From an uncultured Acidobacteriota bacterium (lineage in GTDB: Bacteria > Acidobacteriota > Vicinamibacteria > Vicinamibacterales > Fen-181): DNA of 64,000 bases. The notes under the pieces were generated by a model. It was not told where the DNA came from. It saw only the letters and a list, made by a program, of their open reading frames with translations, and did no database searches. A program made the position numbers and the translations under genes. This document shows, piece by piece, positions 2 to 54,895 of the stretch (positions are counted from its first letter, which is position 1; every line of letters begins with the position of its first letter). Location: contig CAVRWB010000019.1 in assembly GCA_963724775.1 (NCBI GenBank), forward strand, positions 431,051 to 495,050, written 5' to 3'.

Positions 2-1534
2 AGCCTGATGACGCTCTATCATCCCGAGCCGTTCGCCAGTTGGGGACACTACGGTCTCGACCCGAAGATGTTTCCCAGCGGCGACGAGGGGATGAAGCGG
101 GCCGTGGAGAAGGGGCAGGCCCTCGGGATCCGGATTGGCGTCCACACGCTGACCAACTTCATCAACACCAACGACGCCTACGTCTCGCCGGTCCCGGATC
201 CGCGCCTGGCACGATCCGGATCGAGTCCGCTCGTCGCCGGTCTCGACCCGGGCGCGACGGAGATTCACATCGTGGACCCCGCGTACTTTGCCAACGAGAA
301 GGCGAACTGGCTGCACACCGTCGTCATCGATCGGGAGCTGATTCGCTACCGGGCGGTGTCTGCCAGCCAGCCGTGGAGGCTCCTCGACTGCGAGCGCGGC
401 GCGTTCGGGACGAAGGCGGCCGTCCACCGCAAGGGCGCGAGTGTCGGGAAGCTGATCGATCACCCGTACAAGGTCTTCTTCCCAACGCTCGATCTCCAGG
501 ATGAGATCGCCTCGAATCTCGCGCTGTGGTTCAACCGGACAGGCGTCGGCCAGCTTGATTTCGACGGCCGCGAGGGCTGCCTCGCATCGGGGCAGGGCGA
601 CTACGCGCAGGACCGGTTCGCGCAGGTCTTCTACGACCACCTCGACCACCCGGTCGTCAACGGCACCAGCACTTCGTCGCCCTACTACTGGCACATCAAC
701 AGTTACTGCAACTGGGGCGAGCCGTGGTACGGAGGCTTCCGCGAGAGCATGCAGGAGTACCGGATCCAGAACCAGGCGCTGTTCGACCGGAACTACGTTC
801 CGAACATGCTCGGCTGGTACCGGCTGACGGCGACGACGAGCCTGGCGGAGATGGAGTGGATGCTGGCGCGCGCGGCGGGTTTCGGCGCCGGGTTCGCCAT
901 GTCGACCACGATCGAGGAACTGCGCAAGAACGCGGACACCGGGTTGCTGCTCGACACGATCCGGGAGTGGGAGGCAGCGCGGCGTTCGGGCGCCTTCTCG
1001 CCGGCGCAGCGCGAGCGCCTGAAGAACTCGAAGCTCGAGTTCCACCTGGAACGAGCAGCGCAGGCCTCCGTGCCTGCCACAACCCTGCCTGCCGGCGGGT
1101 GGATCCTCTTCCCGTTCCACCACGGCCCCGTGTTCCGCCACGAAAGGACGGTCGGCCAGCCGGGAGAACCATCGGGCGCCGCGTGGACCGTGGAGAACCC
1201 GGACGAAACGCAGCCGCTCCAGTTCAGGCTCCAGGCGGTTGGCGGTACGGGGCGCGCATCAGCCTTCCGCCTGGAAGTGGATCGGACGCAGGTGATCCAG
1301 ATCGACGCCCAGCTGAAAGCCGGCGAGTCGCTGGTCTTCGACGGCGGGACCGTCGCGCGGGTCTACGACGACAAGGGGCGGCAGACACAGGCGGTGGCGG
1401 TCACGAAGCCCGCGCCGCGCACGGCGCCGGGGCCGCATGCGATCGGGTTCGACTGCACGTTTGAGGGCGACACCCCGCCCGCCGTCGAGCTGACGTTCCG
1501 CACGCGCGGCGCCGCGGAACCGGTTGGCCGGTAG
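2..1534 (+). CDS. Glycoside hydrolase-like protein, 5' end outside window
   Basis: Frame open from position 2. Barrel-like motifs (IGVHTL, QLDFDGREG) and a beta-rich C-terminal domain. Family assignment is inference. Confidence 0.6.
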   Translation, partial: SLMTLYHPEPFASWGHYGLDPKMFPSGDEGMKRAVEKGQALGIRIGVHTLTNFINTNDAYVSPVPDPRLARSGSSPLVAGLDPGATEIHIVDPAYFANEKANWLHTVVIDRELIRYRAVSASQPWRLLDCERGAFGTKAAVHRKGASVGKLIDHPYKVFFPTLDLQDEIASNLALWFNRTGVGQLDFDGREGCLASGQGDYAQDRFAQVFYDHLDHPVVNGTSTSSPYYWHINSYCNWGEPWYGGFRESMQEYRIQNQALFDRNYVPNMLGWYRLTATTSLAEMEWMLARAAGFGAGFAMSTTIEELRKNADTGLLLDTIREWEAARRSGAFSPAQRERLKNSKLEFHLERAAQASVPATTLPAGGWILFPFHHGPVFRHERTVGQPGEPSGAAWTVENPDETQPLQFRLQAVGGTGRASAFRLEVDRTQVIQIDAQLKAGESLVFDGGTVARVYDDKGRQTQAVAVTKPAPRTAPGPHAIGFDCTFEGDTPPAVELTFRTRGAAEPVGR

Positions 1535-1540
1535 GACACT

Positions 1541-4267
1541 ATGAGATTCCATCGCTCCCTCCTGCTCACGATGGCGGTCCTCGCCCCGGCGCACAGCGCA
1601 GAGTCGGCGGCGCCCCCGCCCCCGGTCTTGAAGAACGACCGCCTCGCCGCGCACTTCGGGCCGCGCGGCCTCACCGCCATCGACGCGGGCACGAGCCGCT
1701 TCGTCTTTGCAGCAGAGGACTTCTCGATTTCGATCGGCGGGGACTCGTTCGACAGCCAGGTGCTCGCGGCACCGGCGCGCGCGGTGACCAAGGAGCGCGT
1801 CAGCTACGACTGGTCGGCGGGCGGTTTCCGAATCACCGTCTCGTATGAGCTCCAACCCGGGTGGGGCTTCGTCAGCAAGCAACTCTCTGTGACCTCCGAT
1901 CGCGGACGCCTTCAGCCGGCCCCCGGCGCGCGGTTCGACGAGGTGACCGTCATTCGCGCCACGCTCGCCGAAGCGTTCAGTGGCACGTACATTCCGAAGG
2001 GCGCGCGCCCGAACCTGGGAACCGCCGACTACGGCGTCTGCCTGCGCCTCGATGGGCAACGCGGGCTGCTGGCCGTCGTCCAGAATCCTTTCCTTCGCGC
2101 CGAGGTGGGCAAGCCTCAACCCCGCGGCAAGGCGGGGGAGAGCCAGTTGTTCGCGATTAGCTACAAGCCAGAGCTCGACTGGAGCTTCGCGAGCGGGCCG
2201 TTCGTGACGGACCGCGCGCTCCTCGGTCCCTACCGTCCGACCGGCCGCACGCTCCCGGCGAAGATGTTGCCCGAGTGGAACATGGGCCCGAATGACTCCG
2301 GGCCAGGCATGGACGAAGCGGAGATCGCCGCGTTTACCGAGATGGTGCGCGCCTTCGTTCTTGCCAGGCCGTCGCAGCCGGTCAACGTGCTCGTCCCGTG
2401 GTGCCTGAACGACTACCAGATCGACGTTGCCACTGCCGAGGGACGGACCGAGTACAAGCGCATCCTCGATAGCGGAGCCGAACTGGGCGCGGAGTATGTG
2501 ATCTTCGCGCCGACCAACTCGGACCTGGCCAAGCGCGAGGACAGCATGGATGACTGGAGCTGGGAAAACCTGCTCTGGCTCGGCTTCGGTCAGAAGATCC
2601 GGCGCAATGAGTGGGACGTCAAGACGGGTCCCGTGCCGGCATCCGTTCAGGAGATGCTCGACTACGCGAAGGTCAAGAACCTCAAGCTCCTGGCCTACGT
2701 GTACCCGGTGCTGCCGTTTTCGCAGAACCCCGCGTGGCTGGTCTCGCCAAAAGACAACCCGGGCCGCCACTACGCGAACCTCGGCATTCGCGCGTTCCAG
2801 GATTGGCTGATCGAGACGCTCGTTGCCTTTCACGATCGGTTCGGCCTGGGGGGCTACTCGTTCGACCACACCTTCCTTGGCTACCCCGGCGCCAGCCGGT
2901 ACGCGCAGTGGGCCGGCTGGCGACGCGTGATGGAGGAACTCAGGCACCGCGTGCCGGGCATCGTCCTCGACGGCCGCCAGGCGTATCACCAGTACGGGCC
3001 GTGGGGCTGGCTCGCCGGCAGCTACCCGCACCCGACATTCAACGACGAGCAGCCGGAGAGCTTCGTACCGTTTCCGGACCTGCATTTCGACCGGGTGTCG
3101 GCCGACCGTGAGCGCTACACCGCCTTCCGCTACAGGAACTACGAGTTCGCGCCGAGCGAGCTCGTGCCAGGGTTCATCACGCACCAGACGTCGAGGGCGG
3201 ACGACACGGGCGAAATGCCGGAGAAGAAGACGGACAAGGGCGTCATGTTGCAGCCTTTCCGGCAGCGCGACTGGGACTACCTGGGGTGGCGCTACTCGCT
3301 GTTGTCGTCGATAGCGATCGCGGGCTGGAACAACGTGCTCGACATGATTCCCGCGCGGGATCCGGCGGAGTACTCCGCCTTCTCTGCGGCAGACAGGAAG
3401 TGGTTCCGCGGCTGGATCGACTGGACGGCCGCGAACAAGGACGTGCTCCGTCACACGCGGACGATCCTCGGCGAGCCAGCGATCGGAAAGGTGGACGGCA
3501 CCGCGGCGATCGTCGGCAACCGCGGCTTCATCTTCCTCTTCAACCCGAACGGCCGGCGGCTGCCGGCGACGTTCCGTCTCGACGACTCGATAGGGCTGTC
3601 CGCGGCGGGCAGCTTCGTGCTCAAGGAGCTGTACCCGCGGGAGGGACGGTTGCGCGGGAAGGCCGCTGCGACGCCGTGGCAGCACGGCGACGAGGCTACC
3701 TTCACACTCGATGGCGGGTCCGCGATGGTGCTGGAACTTCAGCCGGCGCCGGCGGCCAGCACGGGGCCGCTCGTGTTCGACACGGGCAAGGCCTCGACGG
3801 CCGGTGGTGACGCGACGGCGGCGGACGGGCCCGGCGACGGCTTCAGGCAGTACCAACAGATCGGCGAGTACGATCCCGCCTTCGCTGGCGGGCCGTGGAA
3901 AGGCAGCTTCACGGTCCCCCAACGGGTGTTCGATCAGCTCGCCGCCCGGCAGAAGGCCTGGCCGATCCCCTGGACGGCGGAGGACTACCGGACAACCTGG
4001 CTGGCGCCGCAGCGCCTGCTGCTCTTCGTGCAGATCGCGGAACCGGACGACCGGTGGGAGGCGACGCTGCGGGTTGACGGAAAGGTCGTCGAGCTGAAGA
4101 AGGCCTACACGGCGGTCCGCGTGGCGCGGCGAACCTTCGTCGGCTTCTACGCGGACCTGTCGCTCATCGCACCAGGCGTCCCGCACACGATCGAACTCGA
4201 CCTGCCGAAGCTCAAGCCCGGTCAGCTGCAGGGCGTGTTCTTCGAGAACGTGGAGAGCTCGCTTTGA
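1541..4267 (+). CDS. Secreted glycoside hydrolase-like protein (TIM-barrel type)
   Basis: 908 aa with signal peptide; LNDYQID and GYSFDHT motifs; aromatic-rich; starts 6 nt after the previous gene. Confidence 0.6.
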   Translation: MRFHRSLLLTMAVLAPAHSAESAAPPPPVLKNDRLAAHFGPRGLTAIDAGTSRFVFAAEDFSISIGGDSFDSQVLAAPARAVTKERVSYDWSAGGFRITVSYELQPGWGFVSKQLSVTSDRGRLQPAPGARFDEVTVIRATLAEAFSGTYIPKGARPNLGTADYGVCLRLDGQRGLLAVVQNPFLRAEVGKPQPRGKAGESQLFAISYKPELDWSFASGPFVTDRALLGPYRPTGRTLPAKMLPEWNMGPNDSGPGMDEAEIAAFTEMVRAFVLARPSQPVNVLVPWCLNDYQIDVATAEGRTEYKRILDSGAELGAEYVIFAPTNSDLAKREDSMDDWSWENLLWLGFGQKIRRNEWDVKTGPVPASVQEMLDYAKVKNLKLLAYVYPVLPFSQNPAWLVSPKDNPGRHYANLGIRAFQDWLIETLVAFHDRFGLGGYSFDHTFLGYPGASRYAQWAGWRRVMEELRHRVPGIVLDGRQAYHQYGPWGWLAGSYPHPTFNDEQPESFVPFPDLHFDRVSADRERYTAFRYRNYEFAPSELVPGFITHQTSRADDTGEMPEKKTDKGVMLQPFRQRDWDYLGWRYSLLSSIAIAGWNNVLDMIPARDPAEYSAFSAADRKWFRGWIDWTAANKDVLRHTRTILGEPAIGKVDGTAAIVGNRGFIFLFNPNGRRLPATFRLDDSIGLSAAGSFVLKELYPREGRLRGKAAATPWQHGDEATFTLDGGSAMVLELQPAPAASTGPLVFDTGKASTAGGDATAADGPGDGFRQYQQIGEYDPAFAGGPWKGSFTVPQRVFDQLAARQKAWPIPWTAEDYRTTWLAPQRLLLFVQIAEPDDRWEATLRVDGKVVELKKAYTAVRVARRTFVGFYADLSLIAPGVPHTIELDLPKLKPGQLQGVFFENVESSL

Positions 4268-43935: not shown

Positions 43936-44001
43936 CTGGCAGCTGGCAGCGTGCGGCAGGCAGCCGGCCGTTCACTCAACTGCCTACTGCCTACTGCCTA
44001 C
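43933..44001. repeat. Inverted heptamer arrays (GCTGGCA)n ... (TGCCTAC)n
   Basis: Contains both convergent stop codons (43933-43935 and 43984-43986). Confidence 0.85.
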
Positions 44002-45342
44002 TCTTCCACGCAACCCCCACAGCGTCAGCCCGAGCCCCGTCCACAGCGCCAGCGCCGTCCATTCGGTCCCGGTGAAGCTGCCGGGGATGAAGGGCAGGAC
44101 CTTCATCGCTATCAGCAGCAGCGCCACCCCGGCGCCGCTGATCGCGGCGGCGCGCCGCTCCCGCTCGCCGCGCGCCAGGTAGGCGGCGCAGGTCGCGAGC
44201 CACCCCACGCCGGCCGCAAGCGAGCCGACTTCCGTAATGGGGACGAGGATGGCGTCGCCGAGGAGGGAGGCGCCAGCCGTGAGGCCGGCCACCAGCCAGA
44301 TGGCGCCCGCCGGGGTGCCGAACCGCGGCTGGACGCGGCCCAGTCCCCTGTGAACGAGGCCGCGGCGTCCCATGGCGAAGACCAGCCGGGTTGCCGCGAC
44401 GAAATTGCCGTTGAACACTTTCAGCAGCGACAGGAACGCGCCAGCCAGGATCAGGCGTGCCAGCGCGCGCGAGCCGAACGCGCGCTCGAACGCCGCCTCC
44501 GTCCCGACGTGGCCGGCGACGATCGCCTTCCACGGATAGACGAACGCGACCGCGCCGATGATCGCGACGTAGAACACCACGCCCGCCGCAACCGCCAAGT
44601 ACATCGCGCGCCCGAACCCTCGCGGGTCGAAGCCGGCACGCGCCTCTTCGGCGCCCTTCACCACGGACTCGAAGCCCGTCATGAAATACGGGACGATCTG
44701 CGCGGCCAGGAGCACCGACAGGAGACCGCCGGCGAGACCGGGCCGTGAGAAGAGCGGCTCGAGGTTCGCTGGATCGCCCTTCGCGTAGCCGAGCGTGGCG
44801 AAGACGGCAAACGCCGCCAGCAGGCCGAACGTCGTGAAGTTCTGGAATACGCCGCTCGGCCGGATCCCGCGCACGTTGACGCCGGCGATCAGGAAGGTCA
44901 GGCCCAGCCCCGCGACGAGCCGAGGCAGGTAGATCGTCTTGCCGCCCAGGGTGTAGAGCGGCCAGGTGTTGACGGCGGGCACGATCCGCCCAAGCAGGTT
45001 CCCGATTGCCACGGCCTCCCAGGGGCACACGATGGCGTAAGCGAGGACCATCGTCCACCCGGCGGCGAACGACAGGATGGGCGGGAAGACGCCCTCGGTG
45101 TAGGCGATCTCACCCGCGGCGTCCGGGATTCGGCGGACCAGGGCGCCGTAGGTGACGGCAATGGGCAGGAGCAGCAGCCCGCCGGCGAGGAAGCCGATCA
45201 TCGCCGCGCCCGGCCCGCCGCGCCCGAGCCAGTCGTCGATCAGCACCAGCCAGCCGACACCCACCATGCTGCCGAAGCCGAAGGTGAAGTACTCGACGAA
45301 CGTCAGGCGCCGGAGCAACGTCGGGGCGGCGGGATGCGTCAT
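43984..45342 (-). CDS. APC family amino-acid permease
   Basis: FGSMVGVG, GFES..EE, RLVFAMGRRG and RFGTP motifs; about 12 TM. Confidence 0.9.
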   Translation of the reverse strand: MTHPAAPTLLRRLTFVEYFTFGFGSMVGVGWLVLIDDWLGRGGPGAAMIGFLAGGLLLLPIAVTYGALVRRIPDAAGEIAYTEGVFPPILSFAAGWTMVLAYAIVCPWEAVAIGNLLGRIVPAVNTWPLYTLGGKTIYLPRLVAGLGLTFLIAGVNVRGIRPSGVFQNFTTFGLLAAFAVFATLGYAKGDPANLEPLFSRPGLAGGLLSVLLAAQIVPYFMTGFESVVKGAEEARAGFDPRGFGRAMYLAVAAGVVFYVAIIGAVAFVYPWKAIVAGHVGTEAAFERAFGSRALARLILAGAFLSLLKVFNGNFVAATRLVFAMGRRGLVHRGLGRVQPRFGTPAGAIWLVAGLTAGASLLGDAILVPITEVGSLAAGVGWLATCAAYLARGERERRAAAISGAGVALLLIAMKVLPFIPGSFTGTEWTALALWTGLGLTLWGLRGRVGSRQ

Positions 45343-45802: not shown

Positions 45803-46321
45803 CTACTTCTCGTCGTTCGGCGCGGTTACCTTCTCCAAGTCCTCCGGCGTCGCCTTTGGCAGCTTGCGGATGAACGAGACCATCTTCCAGATCTCCTCGG
45901 GTGTGTGCTCGTCCGCCCACGCCGGCATCGCGGTGTACCGCACCCCGTTCGAGATGACGAAGTAGAGCGCGCCGTCGCTCAGTTCCTGCGTGTCCTCGAG
46001 GCGCAGGTCCGGCACCTTGGGGTAGACGTTCCTGCCGATCTCGGTTTTTCCCGACCCGTTTTCCTCGTGGCAGATGGCGCAGTGATCCTGGAACTGCTTG
46101 CCGCCGTCGACCCAGGCGTTGGCGTTGCCGGCGAACGGGTTTGCCTTCTTCTTGGCGCCGGACGGGATTGAGAGCCACCGCACGCGTTCCGCCACGGCTT
46201 TCTCGATGGCCGGCGGATCCGTCCGGGCCGACAGGCCGTTTCGCGTGAAGAGGAAACCAATCAGGGCGGCGCCGACAGCCAGCGCCCCGAGCGTGAGGAG
46301 CGCATCACGGAGGAATCGCAT
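45803..46321 (-). CDS. Membrane-anchored monoheme c-type cytochrome
   Basis: N-terminal TM; CAICH; GVRYTAMPAW axial Met. Confidence 0.88.
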   Translation of the reverse strand: MRFLRDALLTLGALAVGAALIGFLFTRNGLSARTDPPAIEKAVAERVRWLSIPSGAKKKANPFAGNANAWVDGGKQFQDHCAICHEENGSGKTEIGRNVYPKVPDLRLEDTQELSDGALYFVISNGVRYTAMPAWADEHTPEEIWKMVSFIRKLPKATPEDLEKVTAPNDEK

Positions 46322-46379
46322 GGCACGGGCAGGAACAAGACGCGTGCCGGCGGCCCAGCCCCCGAACAGATGCAAAAAC

Positions 46380-46483: not shown

Positions 46484-48094
46484 TCACCTGGGGAACAGCA
46501 CCCCCGGCGAGAGCTTCCACCCAGGGTCCAGCGCCGCCTTGACCGCGCGCATCTCCGCGACACCCGCGTCGCCGTACAACTCCCGCAGCAGCGCCTGCTT
46601 GGTCGCGCTGCGGCCGACGCCGTGTTCGGAGAGGGGCGATCCGCCCCGCGCGATCACCTCGCGGCCGAACTCGAGGATCGCGTCCTGCCCCGCCTCCACG
46701 TCGGCCACCGTCCGGGGAATGACGTTCGGGTGAACGTTCCCGTCCGAGACGTGGCCCCAGATGGCGTATTCCAGGCCGCGACGCTCGAACCCCTCGCGGT
46801 ACACGCGAAGCATCTCGCCGAAGCGCGCGAACGGCACGATCATGTCCGCCGCCGTCTTCTGCACGCCCGGCGCGGCCTGCTTGGCGACGCCCACCCGGTG
46901 CTTCACGGCCTCGGGCGCCGCCTCGCGGAAGGCGAAGAACTGTTCCGCCCGCGCGCGGTCGCCGGGGACCGCCACCTCCACGTGCTCGAGCACCCCCGCT
47001 TCGTCGAGCAGGCGGCAGAAGCGCCCGAGCGGCGTTGGCGGCGCGGCTGGTTCCAGCGCGGACGCAATCTCCTCGAAGGCGGCCTCGCCCGTCGTCCCGG
47101 GCGGCAGTTCCAGCTGGAGGAGCAGCGCGACCTCGGTCTCCGGCGGGAGGTGAATGCCATACCTGGCATCGCTTCCGTCGTCGTGGAGCATGGCCAGGCA
47201 GCGGCGGTCGAGCATCTCGATCGCGGAAACGTCGATGCCGTTCGGGTCGTTCGACGACCACGTCCGCTTCGACCGCTCGCGCAGGGTTGCCACGAGCCGG
47301 AGCGCGGCATCTTCATCCATCACGGGGACGAGCGCCACGCACAGCGCCGGGGCTGGTTGCACGATCCCGAGGCGCGCTTCGACGATGACGCCCAGCGTGC
47401 CTTCGGCGCCAATGAACAGGTCGATCAGGTCCATGACCGGCGCGGCGAAATAGCCGGCCGAGCGCTTCGGCACGTCGGGCATCCGGTAGGTCGGCAGCGG
47501 AACCCGCGTGGCGCGGCCGCCCGCCTCGACCTCGAAGTACCCGTCGGGATGGGCGAACACGAGGCCGCGCTCGATGTCGAGCACGTCGCCGGACGCGAGA
47601 ACCACCGTCAGGCCCCTCACCCAGATCCGCGTGCTGCCGTACTTGAACGTCGCCGCGCCGGAGGCGTTGGTCGAGATCGTCCCGCCGACGAAGGCGCCGT
47701 CGTAGGTGGGCGCGGGCGGGTAGTAGCGGCCCTGCTCCGCAAGCGCCTGCTTCAGCGTGACGAGCGGGAGCCCGGGCTGGACGCGCACCTCGTGGCCGGT
47801 CGCATCGAGGATGGCGCCCATGCGGGCGGTGCTCAGGACGATGTCGCCGCGCGGCGTCGCTCCGCCGGTGACCGACGACTGGGCGCCTATCGGCAGCACC
47901 GCCGGGTACGCGCGCACCACCGCGGCCACTTCGGCCTCGTCGCGCGGGAAGACCACGCCGGCCGCCTCGCCGCCCGGGTAGTGGGCGGCGTCCTCGAGAT
48001 ACGACCGAACGGTGTCCGGATCGGTGATCACCTGGGGAAGACGAGGCGTGCCGCGTGGCGCCCGGGCGACGATACGATGCGGTGGCGAGATCAC
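46484..48094 (-). CDS. FAD-binding oxidoreductase (GlcD / D-lactate dehydrogenase family)
   Basis: GGTISTNASG, GAEGTLGVI, WGHVSDGNVH, SEHGVG and DPGWKLSPG motifs. Confidence 0.9.
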   Translation of the reverse strand: MISPPHRIVARAPRGTPRLPQVITDPDTVRSYLEDAAHYPGGEAAGVVFPRDEAEVAAVVRAYPAVLPIGAQSSVTGGATPRGDIVLSTARMGAILDATGHEVRVQPGLPLVTLKQALAEQGRYYPPAPTYDGAFVGGTISTNASGAATFKYGSTRIWVRGLTVVLASGDVLDIERGLVFAHPDGYFEVEAGGRATRVPLPTYRMPDVPKRSAGYFAAPVMDLIDLFIGAEGTLGVIVEARLGIVQPAPALCVALVPVMDEDAALRLVATLRERSKRTWSSNDPNGIDVSAIEMLDRRCLAMLHDDGSDARYGIHLPPETEVALLLQLELPPGTTGEAAFEEIASALEPAAPPTPLGRFCRLLDEAGVLEHVEVAVPGDRARAEQFFAFREAAPEAVKHRVGVAKQAAPGVQKTAADMIVPFARFGEMLRVYREGFERRGLEYAIWGHVSDGNVHPNVIPRTVADVEAGQDAILEFGREVIARGGSPLSEHGVGRSATKQALLRELYGDAGVAEMRAVKAALDPGWKLSPGVLFPR

Positions 48095-48246
48095 GACTCA
48101 ATTATGGCCGATCGAGGCACCGGCCGCCGCCACGGTTTGAACCAGGAAGACGGAAGGCACAATCCACCAAGGACGTGTGAATGCCGCGCTGCTCGAGGTG
48201 GGGGCGGTATGATGGTATCCGTCTTCATGAAGGAGGGACGCAGCCT

Positions 48247-48669
48247 GTGCGCACTCGAATCGTACGGACCGTTGCGCTCGCGGTGATCGCGCTCGGTGTC
48301 TTCGCCCTGCGCGCGGCCGCGCAGGAGATGGATCTGTCCGCCGCGCCGCGGATCACCCTTGCGGAGTTCAAGAAACTCCACGACGCTCACGACGTCGTCG
48401 TCGTGGACGTGCGCGACGCCGCCGCCTTCAAGGCGGGCCACATCCCCGGCGCGCTGTCGATTCCGCTCGACCAGGTGACCGCGCGGGTGGAGCAACTGAA
48501 GGCCGAGAACAAGCCCATCGTCACCTACTGCGCTTGACCGGCCGAACACACGGGCGCCCGTGCGGCGCTCGAGCTGGCGGCCAAGGGTGTGAAGAACGTG
48601 CGCGTGCTGAAGGGCGGCTGGGCGGAGTGGCGGCTTGGCAAGAACCCAATCGAAACGGGCGAGAAATAG
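48247..48669 (+). CDS. Exported rhodanese-like selenoprotein (in-frame TGA 48535-48537 read as Sec)
   Basis: VDVR..GHIPGA..IVTYCA-TGA-PAEHTGARAA..VRVLKGGWAEW. The domain is complete only if TGA is read through. RBS and signal peptide present. Confidence 0.85.
48538..48566 (+). promoter_or_regulatory. Bacterial SECIS-like hairpin
   Basis: GCCG-AACA-CACGG-GCGC-CCGTG-CGGC; the loop starts with a G 17 nt after the TGA. Confidence 0.7.
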
Positions 48670-48718
48670 CGCCAGCCAACTTTCACCTCCCTCTTTCCGT
48701 CTACTCACCCAGGTGTTC

Positions 48719-51300
48719 ATGCGCTGTCCGGCCTGGGTGATTGCTGTCCTCCTGTGCGTGTTCGCTCCGGCCGCCGTGTTGTGCGGCGCGGAGCGGAGCG
48801 GCGTCGTCCTCCCGCCCGGGGCGCGAAGCGTTGCCGCGGTAGCGGCCACCGGCGCGACGGCTGTTCGGTTCGACGGCGAGCTGAACGACGGCGCCTGGGC
48901 CAGCGCGCCCGTCATCGCCGATTTCGTGCAGCGCGAGCCGAACGAGGGCAAACCGCCGAGCTTTCGGACCGAGGCCCGGGTCATCTACGACCACTCGGCG
49001 CTCTTCGTGGCCGTCCGCGCATACGACCCGGAGCCGTCCAAGATCGTCGGCCTCCTCACGCGCCGCGATACCGATTCACCTTCCGACTGGGTCGGCATCG
49101 TGGTCGACTCCTACCACGACCGCCGGACGGCCTACGAATTCGACGTCAACGCCGCCGGCGTCAAGGCCGACAAGTACCGCTTCAGCGACACCAACCAGGA
49201 TGTGAGCTGGGACGCCGTCTGGGACGTACGCGTCGCGCGCGACGAGCAGGGCTGGACCGCGCAGTTCAGAATCCCGTTCTCGCAGCTGCGCTTCGACCCC
49301 AAGCGCGGCCAGCACGTTCGGGTTCGCCCTCGTGCGCCGCGTCGGGCGGCTCAACGAGACGTCGACGTGGCCGCTGCTGCCGAGGAGCGCGCCCGGGTAC
49401 GTGTCGTCGTTGGGCGAGTTGACCGGCCTGAACCTCCAGGGAAGCCGGAAGCGCCTCGAAGTCGTGCCGTACATGGTCGGCCAGGTGCGAGACGCAGCAG
49501 GCGCAGGCGGGCAACCCCTTCATCCGGAGCTCCGACGCGACGCGCGTCCTTCGGCGCCGACGCGAAGTTCGCGGTCACGCCGGGGCTCACGGTGACCGCC
49601 ACGTTGAACCCGGACTTCGGCCAGGTGGAAGCCGACCCGGCGGTGGTGAACCTGAGCGCGTTCGAGACGTATTTCGACGAGCGGCGGCCGTTCTTCGTCG
49701 AAGGGTCGGGCATCTTCCACTTCGACATCGACTGCAACGACGGGCAGTGCCGGGGGCTGTTCTATTCGCGGCGGATCGGCAGGACGCCGCGCGGGACGCC
49801 GACCGTTCCCGACGGGGGCTACTCGTCGATCCCGGCGCAGACGACGATCCTCGGCGCGGCGAAGCTGACCGGCCGCGTGGGGAAGTTCTCGGTCGGCGGG
49901 CTGACCGCCGTGACCAACGACGAGCGCGCCAGCATGTACGACGGCACGAACACCTCGCGGACCCTGGTGGAGCCGCTCACCGGCTACTCGGTCGGGCGCG
50001 CCACGCGCGAGTTCGCCAACCAGTCATCGCTCGGGTTCATGGCGACCGCGACCAACCGCCGCCTGACCGCCGACGTGTCGTTCCTGCCGAGCGAGGCGTA
50101 CACCGGCGGCGCGGACTGGGACTGGCGCATGGGCAAGAAGGGTGCGTACTCGCTGGCCGGCTACTGGGCCGCGAGCACCGTGCGCGGCAGCGCGGAGGCC
50201 ATCGACGGGCATCCAGACGAGCATGGTCCACGCTTACCAGCGCCCGGACGCGGGGCACGTCTGACCTCGACCCGACACGCACGGCGCTGAGCGGCATGAG
50301 CGCATCGCTGGGTCTCGCGAGGCTCGCCGGCGATCGCGTGCGGTTCAAAGCAACGGCTGGCTCAAGACGCCCGGGTTCGACATCAACGACCTGGGGTTCC
50401 TGCAGCGCGCGGACGAGCAGGGCTTCTCCAACTGGTTCCAGGTCCGGAACGACAAGCCGTCGAAGCACTTCCGGAACACGCGGCTCAACTTCAACCAGTG
50501 GGCGGTCTTCAACTTCGACGGCGACCGCCTCGCCCTCGGCGCGCAACGTGAACGGCAACGTGCGGACCGAGGGCAACCACTCGACTCGGCGCCGGCGTCA
50601 ACGTCGAAGGCGAGGCGTTCGATGACCGGCTGACACGCGGCGGGCCGGGCGGCCGGACGACCCGATGGCTCTTCCTCTGGCACAACTTCGAGAGCGACGA
50701 CCGCAAGCCGGTCCAATACATCCTACAGCCTGCAAGGCGGCCGCGACTGGTACGACAGCTCGCGGCTGTCGTTCAGCCCGGCCGTCCGCGTGCGGCCCTC
50801 CTCGGCGCTGTCGCTGACCGTCGGCCTCAGCCTGTCGCACAACATGGACGACTCGCAGTGGGTCGAGAACCTCACCGACACGCCGCGAGCATTACGTCTT
50901 CGGCCATCTCGACCAGACGACCGTGGCAGCGACGCTTCGCGTGAACTACACGCTGACGCCGCGCCTGTCCATCCAGTTGTACGGCGCGCCGTTCGTCTCG
51001 GCCGGCGGCTACGGGCCGTTCAAGGAGCTTGTCGACGGGCGCGCGCCCGCCTACGCAGACCGATACGCGCCATTTGCCTACGCGGGCAACCCGGACTTCA
51101 ACTACAAGTCGTTCCGCACGACCAACGTCCTGCGCTGGGAGTACCGGCCAGGCTCCACCTTGTTCGTGGTCTGGCAGCAGGGCCGCGAGGAAGTCACCGA
51201 TGCCGGCCGCTTCCGCTTCGGGCGCGACTTCACCGACGTGTTCCGCGCGGCCGGCCACAACGTCTTCCTGGTCAAGATGGCGCACTGGCTCAACTTCTAG
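48719..51300 (+). CDS. DUF5916 / CBM9-like domain outer-membrane protein; several frameshifts
   Basis: FVQREP, RIPFSQLRF, NPDFGQVEAD, ERRPFFVEG and VLRWEYRPGSTLFVVW motifs; terminal Phe. Confidence 0.8.
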
Positions 51301-51522
51301 CCCGAGCGCACAGAGCGAGACGGTGATTGGCTGAGAGATCCAGAGACGCATTCATGAAGCGCGACCTCGCCTTCAGCTAGAGCGCCGGCGGAGCCGACGG
51401 AGCCAGGCCGGTGTTTGACCCCTTTGCTACAATGCCATGCTCTCTGCGGCTGGCGTGCGGGAGCCTGAGCGGCGGCCGACGGCCTGCCACCTGTCATACC
51501 GGGCCCCTCACGGTGAGTCTCT

Positions 51523-53770
51523 GTGCGCGTTCTTCGTTCCGTCATCCCTGTTTCAGCGCTGGTCGCGACAGTCTGCGCGCTCCTTTTCGCCGTCCCGGCG
51601 ATCGGCGCGCCGGACACTCCTCGCCTCCGCATCCCGCGCGTGTCCTCGCCGCCGCGGCTCGACGACATCGCGGCGGGGCGGATCCCGACGGACATGGCGC
51701 GGGTGGAGGGTTTCGTCCAGCGCGAGCCGCGTGACGGGGAGGCGGTCAGCCGCGAAACGACGGTCTTCGCCGGGTACGACGACGCGTCGCTCTACGTCGT
51801 GTTCCTCTGCAAGGAGGACAAGGGCGTCGTGCGCGCGCGGATGGCCAAGCGCGAGTCGATCATGGGCGACGACAACGTCGGGGTGTTCATCGACACGTTC
51901 AACGACCACCGGCACGCCTACGGCTTCACGGCGAACGCGCTGGGCATCCAGATGGACAGCCTCGTCACCGACGGGCAGGACGACGACTACAGCTTCGACA
52001 CGCTGTGGTACAGCGAGGGCCGCCTGACGGCGGACGGGTACGCGGTCCGCCTGGCCATCCCGTTCCGCAGCCTCCGCTTCAGCAACACCTCGGTGCAATC
52101 GTGGGGCATCGTCTTCGTTCGCTTCCTGCCGACGCGCAACGAGATTTCCTTCTGGCCCCGCATCACCAAGAACATCAGCAATCAGATCGCGCAGGGGGCC
52201 GACCTCGAGGGGATCGAGGGCATTTCACCCGGCCGCAACATGCAGTTCATCCCGTACGGCGCGTTCACGGGATCGCGGTTCCTCCAGGAGGAGTCCGGGA
52301 CGTACGGCGACAAGAACGAGGGCCGCGCCGGGCTGGACGCGAAGGTGGTGATCAAGGACGCGCTCACGCTCGACGTGGCCGCGAACCCGGATTTCAGCCA
52401 GGTGGAGTCCGACGAGCCGCAAGTGACGATCAACCAGCGCTTCGAGGTGCAGTTCCCGGAGAAGCGCCCGTTCTTCATCGAGAACTCCAGCTACTTCAAG
52501 ACGTCCGAGGAGCTGTTCTTCTCGCGGCGCATCGTGGACCCGAGTTTCGGTACGCGGCTGACGGGGAGAGTCGGCTCCTGGACGGTGGCCGGCCTGATCA
52601 TGGACGACCGCGCGCCCGGCGAGCAGGCGGCGCCCGCCTCCGGGGTGCAGGGGAAACGGGCGGTCGCCGCCGTCGGCCGGGTCGTCCGGGAGTTCGGCCG
52701 CCAGTCCACGATTGGCGCGATGGTGACCAGCCGTGACTTTGGCGCCAGCTCCAACCGGGTCGCGGCCGCGGACCTGCGCTTGCGGCTCGGGGACAACTGG
52801 GTGGTCGGCGGACAGGCGATCGCCAGCCAGACGACCCACCAGGACGGCAGCACGCAGTCCGGGCCGGCCTTCGTGACCGGGATGGACTATTCGAGCCGCA
52901 ACCTCGAGTTCAGCAGCTCCTACACGGACCGGAGCGAAGGCTTCCGGTCGGAGCTTGGCTTCTTCCGCCGGACCGACATCCGGCAGTGGGAGAGCGACAT
53001 CCAGTACAAGTGGTTCCCCAAGGACAGCCCGCTCCTCAGCTGGGGGCCCGCCTTCGAGGCCTCGACGGTGTGGAACCAGCGCGGCGAGCTGCAGGACTGG
53101 GAGGCCGGGCCCGAGGTGGAGTTCGAGCTTCCGGCCGGCACGCAGATCCACCTGGGGGCTGGCCGGGCGTACGAAGTGTACGAGGGGATTGGGTTCGAGA
53201 AGCACTCGTTCCGGGCCTTCACCGAAACCGAGTGGCTGAACTGGCTGTCGGGAATGTTCGCCTACAATCAAGGCCCGCAGATCAACTACTACCCGGCCCA
53301 GGGGCTGCCCTTCCTCGCCGCCGGCCGCGAGGTGGAGGCGGGCGTCACGCTTCGGCCAACCCCTCGGGTGCGCATCGAGGGAACGTATATCTACAACGAC
53401 CTGACGACCGGCACCGACCGTCCCGCCGGTGTCGAAGAGGGCGAATCGATCTTCCGCCTGCACCTGTTCCGCACGAAGGCGAACTACCAGTTCACTCGGG
53501 AACTCTCGCTGCGGGCCATCATCGACTACAACGTCGTCACGCCGAATACCGGGCTCGTGGATCTCGAGCACGACAAGCGCCTCACGGGCGACATCCTCGT
53601 CACCTACCTCCTGAACCCTGGCACCGCGGTTTATGTCGGGTATACGGGCGCGTACGCCAACCTGGCGCTCGACCCGCGGCTGCCCGCATCGCAGCAGCGC
53701 ACCGATTCGGCCCGGACGCTCACCGGCCGCCAGTTCTTCGTGAAGTTGAGCTATTTGCTGCGGGTACTGA
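51523..53770 (+). CDS. DUF5916 / CBM9-like domain protein (second paralog)
   Basis: FVQREP, IPFRSLRF, NPDFSQVESD and PEKRPFF motifs. Probable true end FFVKLSYLLRY-TGA, with one extra G near 53763. Confidence 0.8.
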
Positions 53771-53788
53771 GGGGGCACCGGCGATCGT

Positions 53789-54895
53789 CTACGCGATCTT
53801 CTTCTGCTGCGCGATCTCCCGCGCCAGGCGCTCCTGCAGGAACGCGAGCACTGCGCCTTCTTCCGGGCGCAGGCCCTCGAGCCGCTCGGCGAGCGCGCGC
53901 TGGGTTCGCTGCTGAAACGTGCGAAGCGTGAGGCCGTCCGCGTAGGCGTCCAGCACCGCTGGGTGGACGTAGCACTTGCGGCAGATCGCGGGGGTGTTGC
54001 CCAACTGCTTCGCCACGTCCTCGATCGCGCGGACGATGTTCTTCTTGCACTGAGCCTGGGAGTCGAACGACTCGTACTCCTGGAGGGCGAGCGCGGCGAG
54101 GAGCGTTCCCGCCCAGGTGCGGAAATCCTTCGCGGTGAAGTCCTGCCCGCTGATCTCTCGCAGGTACTCGTTCACGTCGGCCGAGTCCACGACCTGCGGT
54201 TCGCCGTCGTCGTCGATATACTGGAACAACTCGTAGCCCGGGAGATCGCGGCAGCGTCGCACGATCGACGCGAGGCGGCGGTCCGAGATGTCCACCGTGT
54301 GCCGCTTGCCGGCCTTGCCCTTGAACGAGAAGCGAACGGTGGCGCCGTCGATCGCGACATGCCGGTCGCGCATGGTGGTCAGCCCGAAGGAGCCGTTCGC
54401 GCGCGCGTACTCCTCGTTTCCGACGCGGATGAACGTGGTCTCCAGCAGCCGGACGACGGCCGCCAGGACCTTCCGGCGCGGGAGGCCGCGCAGGCCGAGG
54501 TCCTCGTTCAGCTTCTGCCGGATCGTGGACAGCGCTTCGGCGAACGCGATCATTCGGGCGTACTTCGTCTCGTCGCGCACCGCGCGCCACCGCGGGTGAT
54601 ACCGGTACTGTTTTCGGCCCTTGGCGTCTCGGCCCGTCGCCAGCAGGTGGCCGTTGGGGTAAGGCGAGATCCAGACGTCCGTCCAGGCCGGGGGGATGGC
54701 GAGCCTGCGGATGCGCTGCAGTTCCTTCTCGTCGGCGATCTCCTCGCCCGACCGGTCGAGATACACGAAGCCGTCGCCGCGCCGGCGCCTGGTGATGCCG
54801 GGCCCGGCGTCGCTGACGTACCGCAAGCCCGCGGACCGCGCGGATTGAACGGACTCGTGGAGCGCCTCGGCCGCCTGCTGGGCAGCGTTCGCCAT
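53789..54895 (-). CDS. DNA topoisomerase IB (bacterial, poxvirus-like)
   Basis: IPPAWTDVWI, GRKQYRYH, RVGNEEY, AKDFRTW and LGNTPAICRKCYVHP motifs. Confidence 0.95.
   Translation of the reverse strand: MANAAQQAAEALHESVQSARSAGLRYVSDAGPGITRRRRGDGFVYLDRSGEEIADEKELQRIRRLAIPPAWTDVWISPYPNGHLLATGRDAKGRKQYRYHPRWRAVRDETKYARMIAFAEALSTIRQKLNEDLGLRGLPRRKVLAAVVRLLETTFIRVGNEEYARANGSFGLTTMRDRHVAIDGATVRFSFKGKAGKRHTVDISDRRLASIVRRCRDLPGYELFQYIDDDGEPQVVDSADVNEYLREISGQDFTAKDFRTWAGTLLAALALQEYESFDSQAQCKKNIVRAIEDVAKQLGNTPAICRKCYVHPAVLDAYADGLTLRTFQQRTQRALAERLEGLRPEEGAVLAFLQERLAREIAQQKKIA

Follow-up and report, generated by a model that had tools for sequence, protein, structure and literature searches.

A rhodanese reading frame that continues beyond a TGA codon

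The locus described here raises the question of whether an in-frame TGA ends a short rhodanese-like gene or is decoded as selenocysteine (Sec) within a longer one. All coordinates refer to the window, which is the whole 64,000-nucleotide stretch of DNA analysed. On the + strand, the reading frame opened by the GTG at 48247 reaches a TGA at 48535-48537, continues through 43 sense codons and closes with a TAG at 48667-48669. The corresponding read-through protein comprises 140 residues and includes the segment KPIVTYCAUPAEHTGARAALELAAKGVKNVRVLKGGWAEW. Gene callers end the gene at 48537, which gives 96-residue entries such as P0002. The evidence presented below argues that 48247-48669 (+) constitutes one gene encoding a Sec-decoded rhodanese, in which the UGA at 48535-48537 would specify selenocysteine, and we assign this reading a probability of about 0.86. 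The features of the locus are:

48247..48669, + strand: coding sequence of the predicted rhodanese selenoprotein, 140 codons including UGA as Sec97, then TAG
48231..48236, + strand: Shine-Dalgarno-like AGGAGG, from reading of the sequence
48247..48321, + strand: putative signal peptide, residues 1-25, from inspection of the sequence by eye
48529..48531, + strand: TGC for Cys95, the predicted catalytic residue, which opens the loop C95-A-U97-P-A-E100 (alignment, PDB 3nhv and structural model)
48535..48537, + strand: in-frame TGA, predicted Sec97, at +2 from the catalytic Cys (Sec/Cys alternation among homologues)
48551..48571, + strand: predicted SECIS hairpin internal to the coding sequence, over codons T-G/S-A-R-A-A-L (comparative analysis)
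48667..48669, + strand: true stop codon TAG (frame reading)

The Shine-Dalgarno-like AGGAGG, as read from the sequence, lies 10 nt ahead of the GTG at 48247. An alternative start at ATG 48181 was considered and rejected, as it would add 22 non-conserved residues and leave the hydrophobic N-terminal segment buried, and the AGGAGG belongs to the GTG. A scan of 47900-48900 for promoters and terminators revealed no promoter-like site and a single terminator-like site, which is located on the minus strand within the gene and is at chance level.

The Pfam Rhodanese domain (PF00581) extends over residues 38-129 of the read-through protein (profile positions 2-100 of 102; E-value of 3.6e-21 and score of 75.9 bits), which thus passes the gathering score of 22.2 bits with a full-length domain. 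Because the match reaches residue 129, a complete rhodanese domain requires the part encoded after the TGA, and the product of 96 residues would, as judged from the sequence, be devoid of the last third of the rhodanese fold. The preliminary description of this DNA had proposed an in-frame TGA beyond which the rhodanese is completed, and the 140-residue frame with its domain match bears this out. The AlphaFold2 model, built with 40 aligned relatives, displays a mean pLDDT of 91.3; its block means are 96-98 within residues 31-130, a span that includes the TGA position. It comprises a β-strand at residues 91-94, the active-site loop at residues 95-100 (C-A-U-P-A-E) and an α-helix at residues 101-112. 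A structural similarity search of the model with Foldseek revealed rhodanese domains as the first-ranking matches (PDB codes 3tp9, 6mxv and 3nhv). Cys95 is invariant in the 40 aligned sequences (40/40) and aligns with the loop Cys of YCWGPAC in 3nhv; Tyr94 shares this invariance, and the Sec/Cys column is kept in at least 90% of the same 40 sequences. In the model, Cys95 is the catalytic Cys of the rhodanese, occupying the first position of the six-residue loop between strand and helix.

Residues 1-25, inspected by eye, consist of a basic n-region (RTRIVR), a hydrophobic core (TVALAVIALGVFAL) and an A-A-A sequence ahead of Gln26. All 40 aligned relatives start with a stretch that is basic and then hydrophobic, and in the AlphaFold2 model the N-terminus forms a separate, low-confidence helix extending from residue 5 to residue 22. 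The twin-arginine motif is absent from the window protein, and some relatives start with M-x-R-R. These features suggest that the protein is most likely exported, by the Sec export pathway.

Selenocysteine and cysteine alternate at the TGA position

In a set of 120 database homologues, 72 terminate exactly at YCA (64 proteins), YCT (5) or YCS (3), and 31 are full-length proteins carrying Cys at the Sec column, within the motif YC[A/S]C. Two further close, full-length homologues present Ser (P0010) and Trp (P0073) at this column, one each of the 120, while the remaining 15 fall into other rhodanese subfamilies, whose loops differ. Among the truncated entries, P0003 and P0004, which derive from independent assemblies and display 96% and 91% identity, respectively, likewise end at YCA.

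At the DNA level, the best 30 loci across 201 same-order genomes, the window's own locus among them, present TGA at the Sec column in 26 cases and TGC or TGT in 4. Neither TAA nor TAG occurs at this column in the 30 loci or in six further loci, which lie outside the 30-locus set and contain seven additional TGA copies. The labels attached to these six metagenome-assembled loci are Vicinamibacteraceae, Acidobacteriota, Thermoanaerobaculia, deltaproteobacteria and Syntrophorhabdaceae. Among the matches listed, at least 46 of the 200 other same-order genomes have one with an E-value of 5.2e-23 or lower and a single in-frame TGA, a count in which the Sec column itself is confirmed for the 30 fetched loci only. 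In every relative the 43 codons following the TGA are conserved as protein (..GGW..W..). In a tree of 40 rows, the Sec and Cys forms are interleaved and the well-supported branches require at least two to three switches between them, which is the usual pattern in families where Sec and Cys alternate. The alignment of homologues at this column, proposed earlier as a check for Cys or TGA, thus returned 26 TGA and 4 TGC/TGT codons in 30 loci, along with the 31 Cys homologues.

These data bear on an alternative, namely that the TGA is an ordinary stop, that the protein has 96 residues and that the open frame beyond it arose by chance or is a decaying remnant. The gene is annotated in this manner here and in the 72 truncated database entries; yet the 43 subsequent codons are conserved in every relative and required for the Pfam domain, and the stop-type codon at the column is always TGA, alternating with Cys codons.

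A conserved hairpin follows the TGA

Immediately 3' of the TGA, within codons 102-108, the window sequence can form a hairpin spanning 17-36 nt past the U of the UGA. The stem pairs 48552-48558 with 48564-48570, an extra pair joins C48551 to G48571, and the apical loop is CGUGC (48559-48563), in which G48560 is invariant and U48561 is found in at least 90% of relatives. The bacterial SECIS spacing rule, which Zhang & Gladyshev reportedly set out in 2005, is 16-37 nt. A search of 48200-48750 against Rfam returned no SECIS-type match and two matches at chance level (E 4-10).

When folded as a single sequence of 66 nt, the region reaches -27.8 kcal/mol with a z-score of -0.69, and 47 of 200 shuffled sequences fold equally well. 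The significance of the hairpin therefore derives from its conservation across relatives, since the single sequence is indistinguishable from shuffles. The stem occurs in the same register in all 33 Sec forms (33/33), pairing columns 18-25 with 29-36 as numbered from the U of the UGA, and the apical loop of these forms has an invariant G26 and U27 in at least 90%. Over 32 distinct sequences, 85.5% of the cells are paired, and sliding the 3' partner lowers this to 35-50%. Compensatory changes affect 4 of the 8 pairs, for example from GCGCC/GGCGC to GUGUC/GACAC, and none of 500 shuffles matched the covariation score. In a subset of sequences, a lower stem CCGGCC...GGCCGG was also observed.

Codon usage displays the same constraint. 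Within the hairpin, synonymous sites are fixed, with GCC for Ala in 31/31, CGT for Arg in 25/26, GCG for Ala in 25/25 and 30/30, and AGC for Ser in 29/31 sequences. Codons beyond the hairpin vary, as illustrated by Gly (GGT 8, GGC 10, GGA 8, GGG 5) and Glu (GAA 18, GAG 13). Among the Cys forms, 6 of 8 have no hairpin in that register, while two, L048 and L066, keep one. The stem alone is thus not diagnostic, as the latter two reveal that GC-rich Ala codons can form such stems in the absence of Sec. The earlier proposal of a SECIS element just 3' of the UGA, with a G in the apical loop, is supported by the shared register in the Sec forms, the covariation and the fixed synonymous codons.

For the ordinary-stop explanation, the single-sequence fold, which is not significant, is the second point in its favour. 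Against it stand the fixed synonymous sites of the hairpin and the affiliation of the protein with a recognised selenoprotein family, described below, such that termination at the TGA appears very improbable.

Accuracy of the assembly around the TGA

A plain Cys-x-Cys rhodanese would result if sequencing or assembly had mistakenly turned a TGC or TGG into the TGA, and both the presence of assembly errors elsewhere and the occurrence of Cys forms within the same order speak for such an error. Between 49309 and 50883, at least eight 1-nt indels separate the window from the short-read contigs of four runs. Among the differences listed, however, the errors are single-base indels and not substitutions. 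A Logan contig of run X1, which may be the source sample, spans 48518-48808 with one difference (48773) and gives the identical TGA, located 17 nt from the contig end. Over 48217-48497 and 48570-48720, other Logan contigs match the window exactly. This comparison is weakly consistent with the TGA. In addition, P0003 and P0004 from the independent assemblies (96% and 91% identity) stop after YCA, and the window retains the hairpin of the Sec forms with its fixed codons. An error at this codon is, overall, the least probable of the explanations considered and carries only a minimal likelihood.

Selenocysteine machinery of the source genome

The source genome (G000) consists of 20 contigs totalling 7.08 Mb and is 83.7% complete. 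It contains selA (534 bits, above the cut-off), selD (342 bits) and a tRNA-Sec (66 bits; anticodon tca by ARAGORN). The selD gene itself has one in-frame TGA, at SCSG*ASKL, which we take to be the usual Sec/Cys site of SelD. The selB gene was recovered in two pieces of 195 and 130 bits that lie in different frames and are collinear with the SelB of a related genome (G092) over residues 1-648. The sequence is stop-free and displays 85% identity to that SelB over residues 1-163 and 65% over residues 170-648, with one frame change, placed in a GC-rich run between nt 1989 and 2009 of locus L001 (G000:C9, about 96920-96945). Of 21 genomes searched, the source genome included, 17 have a selB above the cut-off. 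The frame break is probably an assembly indel, considering the 1-nt indel differences within the window and the recovery of selB in those 17 genomes. The preliminary description held that the organism uses Sec; the expected genes are present (selA, selD, tRNA-Sec, and selB over its full length), with the qualification that selB is broken in frame in this assembly.

If real, the break would mean that the strain could not insert Sec. The gene would then be a relic, expressed as a 96-residue fragment in which the final helices and strand of the rhodanese are missing. In line with this view, selB does occupy two frames in the assembly, and in the relative G007 it is likewise in two pieces. Several observations weigh on the other side. 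The selB sequence extends over the full length without stops, interrupted by a single change of frame in a GC-rich run, and is 85% and 65% identical to its G092 counterpart in the two segments given above; selB exceeds the cut-off in most of the genomes searched, a set to which this one belongs. The contigs from short reads display many 1-nt indel differences at 49309-50883, and the genome, although in 20 contigs, is no more than 83.7% complete. Downstream of the TGA the rhodanese frame is intact, and so are the SECIS and the TGA of selD. A relic is therefore considered unlikely, although somewhat less so than an ordinary stop, and functional decoding of the UGA as Sec remains the preferred reading.

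Genomic neighbourhood

The neighbouring genes, derived from the open reading frames of the window, are:

43984-45342, - strand: amino-acid permease, upstream
45803-46375, - strand: cytochrome c, upstream
46484-48094, - strand: FAD-linked oxidase, upstream
48635-50290 (open reading frame; likely start ATG 48719), + strand: CBM9 and DUF5916 gene, downstream
51523-53931, + strand: second DUF5916 gene, downstream

Searches with tblastn of both DUF5916 frames, the cytochrome c and the amino-acid permease against 39 related loci found none of them. The divergently oriented FAD-linked oxidase recurs in L040, L044, L046 and L053, and partly in L052, which are close relatives among the same 39 loci. 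A Pfam scan of the flanks covered 121 of 207 stop-to-stop frames of at least 200 codons from 22 loci (L048, L054, L058, L060, L063, L066, L067 and some shorter frames fell outside the scan). The counts across the 22 loci were five for P-type ATPase, four for esterase, three for FAD oxidase and two each for GCS2, GGDEF and M20 peptidase; DUF5916 was found in none (0/22), and no recurrent sulfur or selenium gene was detected in the 121 frames. Co-orientation with two DUF5916 genes, which had been pointed out earlier, is thus a true property of the window that is not conserved (0/39 by tblastn and 0/22 by Pfam), and since DUF5916 is absent from the related loci it carries no functional weight. 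The neighbours look lineage-specific, and the rhodanese gene looks like a stand-alone unit whose context offers no clue to the substrate.

Placement within the CxU rhodanese family

The best NCBIfam match of the window protein is NF041203, "rhodanese_LYCAU, rhodanese-related (seleno)protein", at a score of 88.1 bits, which is below the curated cut-off of 115 and thus misses the formal threshold. Ten other acidobacterial Sec forms score 54-88 bits, three Cys forms 61-67 bits and the deltaproteobacterial loci 150-173 bits. In the 40-row family tree, rooted at the midpoint, the four NF041203 members above the cut-off form a clade of their own (support 100/98), and the window protein is placed among acidobacterial forms with Sec or Cys. 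On these sequence grounds, and given 88 bits against a cut-off of 115, the window gene is assigned to a divergent, mostly acidobacterial sister branch of the CxU rhodanese selenoproteins, a family already catalogued. Two reviews list a CxU rhodanese selenoprotein ("rhodanese form 3, CxU") under NF041203, each with Zhang & Gladyshev 2005 (Bioinformatics) as the source. The description of the gene as a hidden selenoprotein is accordingly apt in that gene callers miss it, but the CxU type had already been catalogued. A rhodanese with a Cys-x-Sec loop, as originally proposed, is upheld by the alternation of Sec and Cys at the exact column, the SECIS and the machinery.

Proposed mechanism and significance

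During translation, SelB-GTP carrying Sec-tRNA(Sec) would bind the apical loop of the SECIS through its conserved G-U and, competing with release factor 2, deliver Sec to the ribosome. In the mature protein, a sulfane sulfur (or selenium) atom would be transferred to Cys95, in the manner of other rhodaneses, and the adjacent selenolate of Sec97 could resolve or relay it via a Cys-S-Se-Sec selenenylsulfide. The protein would then act as a fast, redox-active handler of sulfur or selenium in the periplasm and not as a simple persulfide carrier. Perhaps Cys95 and Sec97 do engage in selenenylsulfide chemistry, a suggestion that we rate at somewhat less than an even chance.

A broader and more speculative proposal joins these elements. 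It envisages a distinct, exported sister subfamily of acidobacterial (Vicinamibacteria-like) proteins, common in the order (at least 46 of 200 genomes), lying below the NCBIfam threshold and mostly truncated in annotation, which would use a Cys-Sec selenenylsulfide switch as a periplasmic reductase or relay of sulfane sulfur or selenium, as opposed to a plain transferase, and whose SECIS would be ancient and common to Deltaproteobacteria. Taken as a whole, this combination is tentative and rather doubtful.

CxU rhodanese selenoproteins have been catalogued since 2005, such that the window gene represents a new member and leaves the understanding of Sec decoding unchanged. Its value lies mainly in annotation, as most relatives are stored as fragments of 90-100 residues (72 of the 120 homologues). 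As a result of these fragment entries, and of NF041203 missing the acidobacterial branch, soil Acidobacteriota of this order would seem poorer in selenoproteins than they are. The gene also provides one more case in which Sec would stand beside the catalytic Cys without replacing it. To our knowledge, substrates have not been reported for any CxU rhodanese, and a tractable, exported member is a candidate for finding the substrate or function of the family.

Comparison with known systems

The predicted SECIS resembles that of E. coli fdhF in lying inside the coding sequence directly 3' of the UGA and in displaying a small apical loop with a conserved G-U, at about 23-24 nt past the UGA in the window family; the corresponding loop positions of the fdhF SECIS are G23 and U24. 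In contrast with the fdhF-type SECIS, the conserved upper stem of the window family has no bulged U. The deltaproteobacterial NF041203 members L029, L030 and L032 (150-173 bits) present the SECIS in the same register, with an AGCGCC/GGCGCU stem and a loop G-U, as in the window. Like the NF041203 family in general, the window protein comprises a single rhodanese domain of ~125 residues behind an N-terminal hydrophobic segment, and Y-C-x-U opens its active-site loop. The motifs of the two differ further along, with TYCAU-P-x-E in the window protein vs LYC[A/K]U-V-x-E in the NF041203 members.

Among rhodaneses of known activity, the E. coli thiosulfate sulfurtransferases PspE, which is exported, and GlpE share the fold and have their catalytic Cys in the same place, as the first loop residue (NCBIfam GlpE, E-value of 2.7e-9; PspE, 1.6e-4; Foldseek match 1gmx). 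Unlike the window protein, PspE and GlpE lack Sec and a second redox-active residue in the loop, and levels of sequence similarity are low. The closest solved single-domain structure by sequence is the BH2092-type rhodanese (PDB codes 3nhv and 3o3w; E-value of 2.7e-12). This type and the ArsR-rhodanese fusions, which carry the motif YCxGPxC, display a second chalcogen residue in the loop, as does the window protein. They differ in that this residue is a Cys located at +5, compared with +2 in the window protein, and they contain neither Sec nor a signal peptide.

Other Sec-containing rhodaneses include the rhodanese selenoprotein forms 1, 2 and 4 (UxxS, UxxG), TsoB (NF045694) and a UxU rhodanese variant in Olavius symbionts (PMC1976440), all of which, like the window protein, place Sec in or at the active-site loop. 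The window protein scores 25.9 bits with the TsoB model, vs a cut-off of 805. In these other proteins, Sec replaces the catalytic Cys or belongs to other motifs, whereas the window protein keeps the Cys and would add Sec at +2.

Selenium genes of the source genome and assembly of the downstream gene

The selenocysteine-related genes selB and selD of the genome that holds the window (G000) lie on two contigs:

selB, G000:C9:96434-98402 (locus L001, nt 1501-3472), with a frame break at L001 1989-2009
selD, G000:C15:153142-154071 (locus L010), with a single in-frame TGA at SCSG*ASKL

The selB gene spans its whole length without stops and displays one change of reading frame, located in the GC-rich run at the break. 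Either the assembly carries an indel here, or the gene was inactivated very recently. In the relative G007, selB is likewise split, into two pieces. The in-frame TGA of selD makes the selenophosphate synthetase itself a candidate selenoprotein.

Downstream of the rhodanese gene, the first DUF5916/CBM9 gene (window 48635-51326) is distributed over three frames:

48635-50290, first segment
49747-50625, second segment
50790-51326, third segment

Comparison of the window with short-read contigs from four runs revealed single-base indels at 49309, 49487, 49541, 50206, 50263/4, 50345 and 50882/3, so that the differences span 49309-50883 of this gene; together with the three frames, these suggest that its assembly carries indel errors. 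Separately, in three wetland metagenome runs the summed contig depth jumps to 95-180 within a 110-nt bin of the DUF5916 gene (window 49543-49653), suggesting that this segment is common to many organisms.

Rhodanese homologues in other genomes

The Sec column is occupied by other residues in two full-length database homologues, Ser in P0010 (YCAS), which the tree places as sister of the window's rhodanese, and Trp in P0073 (YCTW, encoded by TGG). Where Sec forms have their SECIS, the Cys-form genes of loci L048 and L066 retain a strong hairpin (local energies of -14.6 and -17.8 kcal/mol, respectively). This hairpin could be the remnant of a SECIS, or it could result from the GC-rich codons used for Ala.

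Paired rhodanese genes were observed at two related loci:

L029:2962-3405 (+) and L029:1496-1912 (-), both Sec rhodanese genes of the NF041203 class, one deltaproteobacterial MAG
L027:2188-2856 and L027:2863-3330, tandem of Sec form (YCAU) and Cys form (YCAC), Thermoanaerobaculia MAG

The L029 genes lie on opposite strands, separated by ~1 kb. At L027 only 6 nt separate the Sec-form and Cys-form copies of the same rhodanese, and this tandem could be a pair of selenium-dependent and selenium-independent genes.
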